A stretch of DNA of 34,851 nucleotides from a virus, in the IMG/VR virus record IMGVR_UViG_3300045988_140506. One strand, written 5' to 3'. The notes beneath the pieces are model-generated. The model had not been told where the DNA came from and did not search any database. It worked only from the letters and a program-made list of their open reading frames with translations. Below, one piece after another: positions 19,933 to 34,851 of this stretch; positions within the stretch are counted from its first letter, which is position 1, and every line of letters starts with the position of its first letter. The position numbers and the translations under genes were made by a program.

Positions 19933-19949
19933 CTCTGCCTCCTATTCTT

Positions 19950-19966
19950 ATTATACACCTTTTTAG
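19950..19966 (-). promoter_or_regulatory. Late promoter candidate before terS (CTAAAAAGGTGTATAAT)
   Basis: A TATAAT hexamer is preceded by AAAAAGGTG. This resembles the spacer plus -10 of the duplicated early promoter (TAAAAAGGGTGTATGAT), but there is no TTGACA-like -35. Confidence 0.45.
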
Positions 19967-20179
19967 AAAATATAGGTCTCGGGAAAATTAGCCCCCCATA
20001 ATCTCCGTTCTCCCGTTCGGGGGGGTAGGGGGTGCGTCCTACAATGCCCTACAATCGACCAAAATATACGGGTTGATAAAATACTTGACTTTGATATAAA
20101 AATCGGTTTTAGCCCCGTTCTACGCCGTCAAATGGGCAAATGCGCCATAATAGACGGGTTCACGGTGTCGGCGGCGGTC

Positions 20180-20201
20180 TGTGTACGTATGCGCGCGCGT
20201 G
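20180..20201. repeat. Perfectly alternating purine-pyrimidine tract TGTGTACGTATGCGCGCGCGTG (left bracket of the iteron array)
   Basis: Read directly from the sequence: 22 nt of strict Pu/Py alternation including (GC)4. Confidence 0.9.
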
Positions 20202-20204
20202 AGG

Positions 20205-20480
20205 GCTTGTTTAGAAAACAAAACAGGCTTTCTTTACTACGATAAAGCGTTAAACCGTTCTCTGCTGTTTAGAAAACAAAACAGGCTTACTTCTGTCCGC
20301 CGCCTGTTTAGTACGATAAAGCAATAAATCATTGGCTTTGTTTAGAAAACTAAACAATTTAGCGCACTAAATCAACAAAGTGTCTATCGTCTTGCTTTAC
20401 TACGTTAAAGTGAAAAAGCGTTGTTTAGAAAACTAAACTCGTTCTTATTCTTCTACAAAAGCCTGTAATAGTACTAAACA
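20205..20480. repeat. Array of two interleaved classes of palindromic sites (iterons or operators)
   Basis: A-type sites (TGTTTAG-AAAA-C(A/T)AAAC) lie at 20205-20228, 20264-20286, 20338-20357 and 20421-20438. A-type half-sites lie at 20305-20311 and 20474-20480. B-type sites (CTTTA(C/G)TACG(A/T)TAAAG) lie at 20232-20247, 20306-20321 and 20395-20410. Confidence 0.85.
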
Positions 20481-20497
20481 CGTACACGCGCGCACGT
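20478..20497. repeat. Perfectly alternating purine-pyrimidine tract ACACGTACACGCGCGCACGT (right bracket of the iteron array)
   Basis: Read directly from the sequence. It has the same GTAC...GCGCGC layout as 20180-20201. Confidence 0.9.
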
Positions 20498-20504
20498 TAG
20501 CCCG

Positions 20505-20632
20505 TTCTTTTTCTTCTTTGCTTTTCTTATCCGAAAAACTCTTTTTTTCTTTTTCATTCTTTCTTTATATATTTCTTTCTTCTTTTTCTTTTTTTCTGAA
20601 AAGCATAATTCTTTTCTTTTTTTCTTTTTCTT
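20505..20632. repeat. Polypyrimidine (plus strand) / polypurine (minus strand) tract built of TTCTTTTT-like units
   Basis: About 128 bp is almost entirely T and C on the plus strand. It is interrupted only at roughly 20531-20540 and 20596-20610. Confidence 0.9.
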
Positions 20633-20777
20633 AAAAAAAGCAAGTACTAGTAATATGCTTATAGTTTTATCTTACAGTTAGTGCTTCTAATAAATAAATA
20701 AATAATAAAAATAAGCATAGAGAGATAAGAATAGGGTATATAACAAGGTAGAAAAGAAAGAGGCGAAAAAAGGCGCG

Positions 20778-20800
20778 AAAAAAGGGCTTTTTCAGCCCTT
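20778..20800 (-). terminator. Rho-independent terminator ending the early / GC-rich-island transcript
   Basis: Minus-strand RNA reads AAGGGCU-GAAAA-AGCCCUU followed by UUUU. It lies 22 nt after the stop at 20823. Confidence 0.75.
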
Positions 20801-20822
20801 TATAAATATATATGTTTTGATT

Positions 20823-21441: not shown

Positions 21442-21546
21442 TTCTCAAAACTCCTTTATTTGTAGTACCCCGACGGGGAAAACGCTCTCACCGTCAGTCG
21501 CTCGCGGCTTAAACCCTATTTTTCCCCGCCGCGACGGGTTGCGCGG

Positions 21547-22449: not shown

Positions 22450-22926
22450 TTAAGGGGGGGTTATCTGACGAGCCTTGCTTTTGATTGTTTCGATATGCTG
22501 ATGTAAGACGGGATAAGTACACTTGATTGTCTGTATCATTTCCTTTTGTCCATAGCCCTGTAAGTTGAGGTCTATTATTTGCCTTTCTACGGCGTTACAA
22601 CGGACTTTTAGTTGCTCTATGATAGTTGTGTCGAAGTCAGGCATTTCCGCGCCTTTAAGGGGCATTGCAAGGTCAAGGGCGGTTTCGTTAAAAGACTTTA
22701 CTGTTTCCTTTTTGTGTTGTCGCTTGATAAAATAGTAAACGTTCTTGTAAGCATAAGTTGTCCATTTTATGTTTCGGCTTTCGTCAAACCTTTCAATGCA
22801 CATACACATATACAAGATTGCGCTTTGCCTTAAATCTTCGTCGCCCGATAAACCTTGATTTTTAAGTGCCGTGTTTACAACCCATAAACTATTCTCAATA
22901 GTCGTCCGTTGCTCGTCCGTCAACAT
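22450..22926 (-). CDS. Phage-encoded sigma-70-family (small, ECF/SigK-like) RNA polymerase sigma factor
   Basis: A region-2-like segment reads RQSAILYMCMCIERFDESRNIKWTTYAYKNVYYFIKR. A region-4 HTH-like segment reads ERQIIDLNLQGYGQKEMIQTIKCTYPVLHQHIETIKSKAR. The ATG at 22926 has AAGGAG 5 nt upstream. The listed start at 22932 is a GTG. Confidence 0.8.
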   Translation of the reverse strand: MLTDEQRTTIENSLWVVNTALKNQGLSGDEDLRQSAILYMCMCIERFDESRNIKWTTYAYKNVYYFIKRQHKKETVKSFNETALDLAMPLKGAEMPDFDTTIIEQLKVRCNAVERQIIDLNLQGYGQKEMIQTIKCTYPVLHQHIETIKSKARQITPP

Positions 22927-30631: not shown

Positions 30632-31480
30632 TTAAAAATATCTTAAAAGTTCTTTGTCGGTATAATTCGCAAGGTCAGGTCTTGCTTTTCGCAATTCCAA
30701 AAGTTCACGCTGTATCTTTTGTTCTTTCGTTTCTTCCGTCGGTTCGACTTGCTCGTTTTCTTTTAGCGGAAACAAACCCTGCCAACTGTTCATCACCGAT
30801 AGATTTATTATTTCAATCTGTTCGTTTATGTTTTTCGATAAGCGATTAAGTTTCGCAATCGCAAGTTCAAGACCGTGTTCCGTTATAGGCTTTTTGATTG
30901 CCTTTCTCATTTTTACATATTCTTTAAGTGGACTTTGTATTTTTTCATCTTGTTTGCTTATAATATCGTCAATAGTGTTTTCTTTCTCTTTCTTATTTTC
31001 TTTCTCTTTTAATATATTAGAGTTAGAATTAGATATAGAGTTAGAATTAGAATTAGATATAGAGATTTGTTTCACTTGCGTTACACAATCGTTACTTTGT
31101 AACGCTTTTTGATTTTTTCGTTCTCTAAATTGTCTAACTCTTTCAGCACTTTCGCTTTCGCTACCTATGTTATTACTTGCTTCTAAAAGAAAGAAATCGT
31201 TGTTTTCGTTCATATCTATTAAACCTTGCGATTGTAGATAAGAAATCGTTACACTTATATTTTCGACATCTTCGTCAAGTTTAAGCGCAAGTTCTTCCTG
31301 AAAAGTCGGCTCTATCTTTTCGTATTCGATATAACCGTTGTTTTTAATGCTTAATAATTGCAGTTTAAGATAAATAATCGTGTATGTATCGCCACCAGCA
31401 ATTTTTCTCAATTTTTTGATTTTTGGGCTATCAAAATAGTTTTCTTTGAGTTTTAGCCAAAAATACCTTTTGTCTGCCAT
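30632..31480 (-). CDS. Phage replisome organiser (N-terminal winged-helix type, DnaD-like C-terminal domain)
   Basis: The N-terminus MADKRYFWLKLKENYFDSPKIKKLRKIAGGDTYTIIYLKLQLLS is characteristic of the replisome-organiser family. The C-terminus reads MRKAIKKPITEHGLELAIAKL...SVMNSWQGLF. AAAGGAGCGTGAATAT lies before the ATG. Confidence 0.8.
   Translation of the reverse strand: MADKRYFWLKLKENYFDSPKIKKLRKIAGGDTYTIIYLKLQLLSIKNNGYIEYEKIEPTFQEELALKLDEDVENISVTISYLQSQGLIDMNENNDFFLLEASNNIGSESESAERVRQFRERKNQKALQSNDCVTQVKQISISNSNSNSISNSNSNILKEKENKKEKENTIDDIISKQDEKIQSPLKEYVKMRKAIKKPITEHGLELAIAKLNRLSKNINEQIEIINLSVMNSWQGLFPLKENEQVEPTEETKEQKIQRELLELRKARPDLANYTDKELLRYF
31017..31064. repeat. 24-bp tandem duplication made of TTAGAR hexamers inside the organiser gene (candidate origin iterons)
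   Basis: TTAGAGTTAGAATTAGATATAGAG is followed by TTAGAATTAGAATTAGATATAGAG, with 1 mismatch. It encodes the SISNSNSNSISNSNSN linker and is flanked by an AT-rich TTTCTCTTT tract. Confidence 0.85.
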
Positions 31481-34361: not shown

Positions 34362-34851
34362 TTAATTAGTTATTTTACGATATTTGAAAGATTGATTTTC
34401 GGTTCCAACTTCTGTAATAGTCCCGCCGCTCTTTATTTGTGACGTTGTTTGACTTATAGTCAATATTCCGCCACCGCCGCCGTCAAGTGGTTCAACTTTT
34501 ATGCGATACGTATAAATATTCAAGTTGCCGCTAACAACTGTGGCGACTGACCACGATTGACAGTTTATAGTAAACGTTTCTTTCCCATTATAATCTATGA
34601 TATAAACCGCGCCCTCGGCATAATTAGAAGCCTGCCCATACAATATTTCATATCGTCCAGCGGTTATTCCTACTGTTTGAACAGAACTGCTCCACTTGCC
34701 AGCACTTGGCACATAACTGTTTATGACCTCGAAAAGCCCCTCGTTGCTTGTCTGCTCGACTTCGTATTTGTAAGGTATTGAGGTTGTCGGCACGGTGTCA
34801 CGGATAACCGTTATAGAGCCGTTCGCCTTGTTTTGAGCCTTTACGTCGCCC
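34362..34851 (-). CDS. C-terminal part of the modular receptor-binding / tail-fibre-like protein (same gene as 1..1477)
   Basis: This is listed ORF 34362..34793, and the frame stays open up to the window end. It is in frame with 1477..1 across the 119-bp overlap. The stop is TAA at 34362-34364. Confidence 0.75.
   Translation of the reverse strand, partial: GDVKAQNKANGSITVIRDTVPTTSIPYKYEVEQTSNEGLFEVINSYVPSAGKWSSSVQTVGITAGRYEILYGQASNYAEGAVYIIDYNGKETFTINCQSWSVATVVSGNLNIYTYRIKVEPLDGGGGGILTISQTTSQIKSGGTITEVGTENQSFKYRKITN
34733..34851. repeat. Exact copy of 1..119 (end overlap)
   Basis: Same comparison as for 1..119. Confidence 0.95.

Follow-up and report, generated by a model that had tools for sequence, protein, structure and literature searches.

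Positions 20180-20497 of the virus record IMGVR_UViG_3300045988_140506 (34,851 nucleotides, referred to here as the window) hold a cluster of short palindromic sites next to terS, the gene for the terminase small subunit. Judged by its sequence, the site that recurs in this cluster, the A site, is the operator of TP901-1-type CI repressors of gut Clostridia prophages, which are partnered by a DUF739 MOR/Cro-like protein. This match makes it probable that a prophage CI binds the A sites. The fuller reading put forward here, which is held more tentatively, is that the region consists of orphan operators that would be read in trans by the CI of a resident prophage, with titration of the repressor as the most plausible consequence.

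The A site and the prophage switch operator

IMG/VR was scanned for the exact A-site 16-mer and at least 119 loci were found. Among the matches listed, 58 of these loci adjoin a pair of genes for a CI-like and a DUF739 protein. Two other motifs were used as controls and gave no such pair, neither the B motif of the same cluster (0 of 110 loci) nor the motif of a distant relative, L006 (0 of 120 loci). A second near-copy within 400 nt was found at 44 of 114 A-site loci, again among the matches listed, whereas the B motif had one at 1 of 109 loci and the L006 motif at 1 of 120. The two genes are divergent and encode a 71-aa DUF739 protein and a repressor of the helix-turn-helix (HTH) family HTH_3. 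Pfam confirmed DUF739 as well as HTH_3 plus Peptidase_S24 (Peptidase_S24 in L008), and the DUF739 protein is labelled "Cro-like repressor" in cultured Streptococcus phages.

The A site occupies the same positions relative to the DUF739 gene in at least 55 distinct switch regions, namely about -34, about -80 to -135, and +203 to +210. The site at about -34 lies between the promoter and the ribosome-binding site, and the site at +203 to +210 lies just past the stop codon. Read in the sense of the DUF739 gene, the form GTTTAG-AAAA-CTAAAC is found in 52 of 55 switch regions among the matches listed; the spacer of the switch site is TTTT in L015, L058 and L082, which are related regions. In the CI/MOR switch of TP901-1, CI binds three operators, OR, OL and OD, and this topology is described as common to phages with differing operator sequences (PMC7250872). 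Going by their coordinates, the A-site positions in the switches are the OR/OL/OD topology of TP901-1. The recognition helix of CI (xKGALSSYxSG) is strongly conserved across the switch loci and the helix of MOR is not, and CI is therefore the likely reader of the operator.

Three A sites of the cluster have exact counterparts among these operators. A3 is 20/20 identical to the operator at the OD position of L029 and L007, and both A1 and A2 are 18/18 identical to the operator of L117. Similarity ends at the edges of the sites (at most about 25 nt), which means that the array is not a copied or transplanted switch. The same switch and operator are present in genomes of Lachnospiraceae, Blautia, Butyrivibrio, Mogibacterium, Oscillospiraceae, Christensenellales and other Clostridia. 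This Clostridia branch of the switch has one operator, AGTTTAGAAAACTAAACA, at three fixed positions while its proteins go down to 36% identity, as seen in at least 55 switch regions from IMG/VR and in 18 genome loci (for example L008 11100-11500 and L029 5300-5700). Whatever the mechanism in the phage may be, an operator and a three-site topology are thereby defined for a large uncharacterised branch of the TP901-1-type switch. An earlier note on this DNA had argued that palindromic sites imply a dimeric DNA-binding protein, and this view fits what was found: the sites look like targets of a dimeric HTH protein and the A site is letter for letter a repressor operator. A literature search for the A-site motif found nothing. 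The B site and the L006 motif were also considered as outside operators and rejected, since they gave single chance-like matches only and none beside a CI/MOR pair. Matches to the 18-mer in Myroides/Flavobacteriaceae were treated as coincidence because the site lies inside a block that is conserved over six loci and reads like coding sequence.

The cognate repressor was looked for in the phage as well. When the complete genome was searched by tblastn in all six frames, four queries taken from CI and MOR gave nothing below E = 0.036, and no CI or MOR homologues were found in the recovered DNA of the relatives either. Cognate cI (HTH_3) and mor (DUF739) genes were not found beside the array sites. 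The sites were also examined for a location at divergent PR/PL promoters, and no promoter-like site was seen on the gene strand of the gap in which they lie. The array thus resembles the TP901-1-type switch (lactococcal TP901-1, staphylococcal phi13; PMC7250872) in its 16-18 bp dyad, which is identical to the operators of the Clostridia branch, a branch that shares the arrangement of three operators around DUF739 (MOR) and HTH_3 CI genes. It differs from that switch in that its sites are not at divergent promoters, the phage has neither a CI nor a mor gene, and 1-5 perfect copies are packed into about 300 bp upstream of terS and bracketed by alternating purine/pyrimidine (RY) tracts.

Arrangement of the cluster and its variation among relatives

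The gap in front of terS runs from 19933 to 20822 (890 bp). Its longest open reading frame (ORF) is at most 48 aa, which bears out the statement of the earlier note that no credible ORF precedes terS. The note had also placed the array just upstream of terS. The position stands, and the orientation has to be corrected: all long ORFs of the window are carried by the minus strand, with terS at 19932-19252, so that the array is upstream of terS in gene orientation. It spans the stretch from 250 to 560 bp ahead of the terS start, with the early terminator on one side and the terS promoter on the other.

Four A sites, all on the plus strand, are present with cores within a few bases of the ranges first reported. 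A1 (TGTTTAGAAAACAAAACA, 20208-20225) stands next to the downstream bracket and is invariant in the six sequences of one alignment (alignment A2), and site A2 (TGTTTAGAAAACAAAACA, 20266-20283) is an imperfect variant. A3 is the perfect 8-4-8 palindrome TTGTTTAGAAAACTAAACAA at 20338-20357 (18-nt core 20339-20356), as had been described, and A4 (TGTTTAGAAAACTAAACT, 20422-20439) is of the operator type. The isolated A half-sites at 20305-20311 and at 20474-20480 (CTAAACA) can be read from the sequence. The three B sites and the further hairpin were likewise found where they had been reported. B1 (CTTTACTACGATAAAG) is at 20232-20247 and B3 (CTTTACTACGTTAAAG) at 20395-20410, while B2 at 20306-20321 is a hybrid with one mismatch, GTTTAG-TACG-ATAAAG, which has an A left half and a B right half. 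The extra hairpin (ATTTAGcgcaCTAAAT, 20357-20372) consists of A-type half-sites around another spacer (ATTTAG-CGCA-CTAAAT), and in L001, L002 and L408 this site is GTTTAG-TGCG-CTAAAC, a symmetric double change. All eight array sites fit one dyad scheme, NTTTAN-N4-NTAAAN. A and B are variants of this scheme rather than two separate site classes.

The sites are concentrated in the array to a degree that is not expected by chance. When the entire 34.8 kb were scanned with TGTTTAGAAAACWAAACA, allowing up to 2 mismatches, 4 matches were found against 0.03 expected, all of them in the array, and a count of 4 was reached in 0 of 100 shuffles. The B site has 3 matches in the window against 0.08 expected. 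The looser pattern TTTAG-N4-CTAAA (up to 1 mismatch) matches seven times in the window, six of them inside the array.

An RY tract was defined as a strictly alternating purine/pyrimidine run, here of at least 18 nt. The alternating tracts said to bracket the array were both confirmed, and runs of this length occur at only one other place: the three locations are 20181-20200, 20478-20497 and 22796-22813, with 5 overlapping matches against 0.21 expected. RY tract 1 (ACACGTACACGCGCGCACGT, 20478-20497) is the upstream bracket in gene orientation and RY tract 2 (TGTGTACGTATGCGCGCGCGTG, 20180-20201) the downstream one. In the relatives the tracts take 28 distinct sequences of 14-32 nt (14-29 nt for tract 1 and 22-32 nt for tract 2), all perfectly alternating. 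The conserved feature is the alternation with a CG core and not the sequence. To judge from the letters, such alternation is compatible with boundaries that would be prone to Z-DNA or to slippage, and the tracts may also be places of recombination. They share with Z-DNA-prone (CG/TG/TA)n tracts the strict alternation over 14-32 nt and the CG cores. We know of no role for paired Z-DNA-prone tracts that bracket a protein-binding cluster in a phage.

The RY tracts are made of the palindromes CGCG, GCGC, ACGT and GTAC, which the genome tolerates. Six other 4-bp palindromes are nearly missing from the genome (found/expected: GGCC 0/70, GATC 1/67, CTAG 1/36, CATG 3/65, AGCT 4/70 and CCGG 8/99). The CG-containing palindromes GCGC, CGCG, ACGT and TCGA are kept, and the observed/expected ratio of CpG is 1.53.

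The variation of the array was followed in 20 related gaps, which were collected from IMG/VR, a human-gut metagenome collection and Logan assemblies by TerS-based, pattern-based and exact-protein look-ups. Human-gut metagenomes are the source of this phage family. The relatives share the gene order of the window, and a blastn search of GenBank phages with the gap gave no match. The interior between the brackets is hypervariable. Nine relatives with 100% identical TerS have from 1 (L410) to 5 (L419) A sites, and the spacing of A sites among the relatives is 28-143 nt. L003, L004 and L409 have no B sites. Each RY tract can be dispensed with individually: L416 lacks tract 1, L410 and L418 retain it in a much reduced form, and tract 2 is deleted in L413 and L415. 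Site number, order and spacing therefore vary too much for the layout to be called ordered, and the supposed ordered array is better regarded, regardless of mechanism, as a plastic cluster.

The site itself is frozen. Every one of the 20 relatives retains one or more A sites and one or more RY tracts, and their 70 A sites comprise just 3 distinct 16-mers. Fourteen of the 16 positions are invariant; position 1 is G in 68 sites and A in 2, and position 5 is A in 26 and T in 44, while the DNA between the A sites diverges freely. The comparison with related genomes that the earlier note had proposed thus gave a divided result, in which the A-site sequence is retained, number and spacing are scrambled, and the B sites or one RY tract are sometimes missing. 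Paired A sites 40-70 nt apart were found only in this phage family within IMG/VR and the metagenome collection. In L006, whose TerS is 66% identical, four copies of an unrelated 5-4-5 palindrome, ATAGAGATTACTCTCT, occupy the same position (2473-2610); the motif has the form AGAGATTACTCTCT, and L006 has neither RY tracts nor the polypurine block.

The flanks of the array are conserved. On the upstream side they comprise three elements on the minus strand. The early-operon intrinsic terminator (AGGGCUGAAAAAGCCCU followed by a U run, 20776-20800; hairpin -11.8 kcal/mol) is conserved in the relatives. An AT-rich box with small palindromes (20630-20715) has many columns that are invariant across the family. 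A tract of about 135 nt (20505-20640), polypurine on the gene strand and pyrimidine-rich on the plus strand, contains repeat families and tandem repeats and is well conserved in the alignments. On the downstream side, also on the minus strand, are a GC-rich block just past the array (GACCGCCGCCGACACCGTGAACCCGTC, 20153-20179), which is a run of invariant columns in alignment A2, a C-rich motif (CCCCCTACCCCCC, 20020-20032), which has no second copy in the genome and is also present in L006, and a TATAAT hexamer (19950-19955). The hexamer is a candidate late promoter about 17 nt before the terS start codon; it has no good -35 element and is invariant in all seven aligned sequences including L006. 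A consensus scan of the gene strand of the gap found no full sigma-70-type promoter. The C-rich motif is a candidate packaging or promoter element. All relatives, even the distant L006 (about 2627-2640), keep the pattern CCCCC(T/A)nCCCCCC upstream of terS.

Several other explanations of the gap were tried. A structured RNA was rejected, since the two strands fold about equally (z -2.5 and -3.3), as is expected because the DNA is rich in palindromes, and in 44 of the 70 A sites the hairpin pair is disrupted without a compensating change. An Rfam search over the gap gave no match at the gathering score and a search for tRNA genes found none. A CRISPR array and a miniature inverted-repeat transposable element were rejected as well; the spacers share content and the paired sites are confined to this phage family. 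A second terminator, formed by a C-run and a G-run before terS, was discarded because its folding is no better than that of shuffles and its structure is not conserved.

Possible readers of the sites

If the sites are orphan operators, the reader would be a CI that is supplied by a prophage resident in the infected cell. The CI of TP901-1 is described as multimerising (hexameric) on three operators, and with 3-5 perfect sites in one genome the cluster would act as a high-avidity sink. With replication of the phage, the sites could come to outnumber CI and the repressor would be titrated by the decoy. Any action of CI on the phage would then be relieved and the resident prophage might be derepressed. 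The B sites and the spacer variant are built on the same TTTA...TAAA half-sites and might be alternative sites or weaker ones. The packaging signal and the late promoter would more likely lie in the conserved flanks than in the array. A related situation is known from mycobacteriophages. The stoperators of L5 are many repressor sites outside the switch, which are dispersed, asymmetric and oriented with transcription, and D29, a repressor-less virulent relative of L5 and recent deletion derivative of a temperate phage, keeps sites that are read by a related prophage repressor. The array is like these stoperators in that repressor-type sites lie outside a switch in a phage with no repressor gene. 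It is different in that its sites are clustered and palindromic and that the phage shares no switch remnant with prophages.

A more elaborate proposal can be drawn from the same observations, and it is rather doubtful. The cluster would be a fast-evolving sponge of resident-prophage operators in an apparently virulent phage without a repressor, and titration would either force the prophage out of lysogeny or borrow an SOS-sensitive repressor for late or packaging control. The A/T toggle at position 5 and the variant sites would track immunity types, and the RY tracts, possibly methylated by the C5 methyltransferase of the phage, would be structural boundaries. If a prophage CI does read the sites, this would represent a cross-talk at the DNA level between a virulent phage and resident gut prophages, in which a nucleic-acid decoy takes the role of an antirepressor protein. 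Such cross-talk would also be relevant to the triggers of prophage induction in Clostridia, and orphan operators would be a sequence signature predicting which phages interact with which prophages.

A number of observations weigh against a prophage CI as reader and against titration. The commonest variant of the array, with the right half CAAAAC (44 of 70), is present in only 2 of the 55 switch regions listed (L117 and L020), and the rarity of this variant in switches makes a different reader that prefers GTTTTGTTTTCTAAAC possible. The benefit that a virulent phage would gain from titrating a prophage repressor is not obvious. L410 has a single A site, from which it follows that a large array is not required for viability. 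The palindromes of L006 could be explained equally well by a phage-encoded reader and by a decoy that has been turned towards another prophage, and the L006 motif was not found in any outside operator family. That an AT-rich 16-mer dyad should match one of many operator families by chance or convergence is improbable though conceivable, at about 1% by a rough reasoned estimate. In addition, pac or cos sites are classically located upstream of terS.

The last point leads to a pac/cos region as the alternative, in which TerS, perhaps with an accessory protein, would bind the A sites, the DNA would be bent with the help of the polypurine tract, and TerL would cut nearby in an RY tract or the AT box. 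The array is directly upstream of terS and terL, TerL (19277-17811, minus strand) matches Terminase_3 and Terminase_6N, at least one A site is present in every relative, and L006 has its four palindromes at the same position. Moreover, the contigs L001, L405 and L408, which are independent assemblies, begin within 27 nt of each other in the AT box, at about 20690-20715, which may mark a physical end of the genome. However, these ends are outside the array, do not fall on one exact nucleotide, and also fit assembly breaks in low-complexity AT-rich DNA. The terminase arrays of known phages, such as the cosB R sites of lambda, the pacL and pacR boxes of SPP1 and the P1 pac site, whose repeated hexamers flank the cut, have a number, order and spacing that are fixed for a given terminase. 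The array resembles them in its repeated sites and non-coding, bendable DNA beside terS, and in P1 two repeat clusters likewise bracket a centre, but it varies among phages with identical TerS: the nine such phages differ in how many A sites they have and in the order and spacing of these sites, and one RY tract is missing in some. The terminase recognition region suggested in the earlier note also fits poorly with L006, in which the HTH of TerS is nearly unchanged (NPSQSAYMMET, compared with NPSQAAYIMER) and yet the array motif is unrelated, although this is a single comparison. The A site is, furthermore, a repressor operator in at least 55 unrelated switch regions. A packaging function of the array is therefore considered unlikely, and the conserved flanks are better candidates for pac/cos and for the promoter. 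The closest cultured TerL is just 23-28% identical, too distant to indicate the packaging type; a sequence search of the PDB with TerS and TerL gave no match.

The other alternatives appear less likely still. A regulator encoded by the phage, either the 60-aa HTH protein (25885-25703, minus strand) or a partner of the sigma-like factor (22932-22450, minus strand), might bind the A sites and bring about an early-to-late switch at the terS promoter. By hhalign the 60-aa protein is the only protein of the window with a CI-like HTH (probability 84.6%; a generic, HTH_17-like match), it is conserved in L120, a carrier of the same A sites, and the TATAAT before terS probably needs an activator or the sigma-like factor since it is without a -35. 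But the nearest A site is about 255 bp upstream of this TATAAT, with no site near the promoter, and the copy number of 1-5 also speaks against such a switch. The recognition helix of the 60-aa protein, SRTTIYKLCKE, is unlike that of CI, no homologue was found in the switch loci with the same operator, and the protein would need the same 18-bp specificity as an unrelated repressor family. A search for relatives of the 60-aa protein returned the protein itself alone. A phage-encoded reader is thus improbable, and the same applies, a little more strongly, to the proposal that the sites are selectively unimportant, recombination-prone repeats at the junction of the early and late modules, with slippage-prone RY tracts and an operator match that is a relic or coincidence. 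Such repeats would account for the extreme indel variability and the relative with a single A site; the early genes beside the gap are mosaic among relatives, and on inspection the differences between RY variants seem to be transitions and changes of even length, the pattern expected of slippage. Against this, the 70 sites fall into 3 distinct 16-mers whereas the intervening DNA diverges, no relative has lost all A sites or both RY tracts, and both A-site variants coincide exactly with real operators. The least probable of the alternatives, and a very improbable one, is the iteron-type origin that had also been suggested. The array has at least four dyad sites next to a polypurine AT-rich tract of 135 nt (20505-20640), as in the lambda origin and the organiser genes of Firmicutes phages, where dyad iterons stand beside an AT-rich, purine-asymmetric block that would be the site of unwinding, and genes for a replisome organiser and a DnaC-like loader are present in the phage. 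However, about 10 kb separate the array from the organiser gene, the number and spacing of its iterons are not conserved, and the sites match a repressor operator. The organiser gene has repeats of its own at 31016-31064, where tandem hexamers (TCTAAY on the gene strand, with periods of 6, 12 and 24) precede a polypurine AT-rich block. The usual position of the origin for Phage_rep_org_N proteins is inside the organiser gene, and 31016-31064 is, by sequence, a candidate replication origin.

The genome around the cluster

The window is a closed circular assembly with a true genome length of 34,732 bp. An exact direct repeat of 119 bp is present at its ends (1-119 = 34733-34851; k = 119) and a tail ORF of 615 aa crosses the circle junction, from which it follows that the window is a complete circle and no fragment. 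The same contig is found among metagenome assemblies as ena:ERZ27229841:k119_260703. A lysogeny module hidden outside the window was considered and rejected, given the closed circle and the relatives with the same gene order. The GC content is 0.34-0.48 per kb and about 0.43 overall, close to the 40% first judged by eye.

The gene order begins with the replisome organiser (31480-30632, minus strand), followed by the DnaC-like loader, the C5 cytosine methyltransferase (29836-28736, minus strand), the Sak annealing protein, an exonuclease, the 60-aa HTH protein and SSB. The second half has the sigma-like factor, three unknown ORFs, the 890-bp gap, terS (phrog_51, E = 6e-7), terL, the portal gene and the structural genes. 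No endolysin, holin, integrase or repressor was recognised when the proteins of the window were searched with Pfam and PHROGs. Most structural proteins are without a family match, among them proteins of 1567 aa and 1200 aa.

A Pistol self-cleaving ribozyme (RF02679) is present at 21463-21539 on the minus strand and scores 48.4 bits compared with a gathering score of 34.5. It sits between the ORFs at 22311-21547 and 21441-21112, and the gap before terS begins about 640 nt downstream of it. The ribozyme is missing from 14 related loci and is thus part of a segment inserted in this variant. Ahead of the first replication gene, an early promoter candidate with the consensus sigma-A-type sequence TTGACA-17-TATGAT is found at 31654-31626 on the minus strand, and it is followed at 31560-31508 by a hairpin with 19-bp arms and a U run. 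Together, the elements at 31654-31508 look like an early promoter plus a leader terminator or attenuator.

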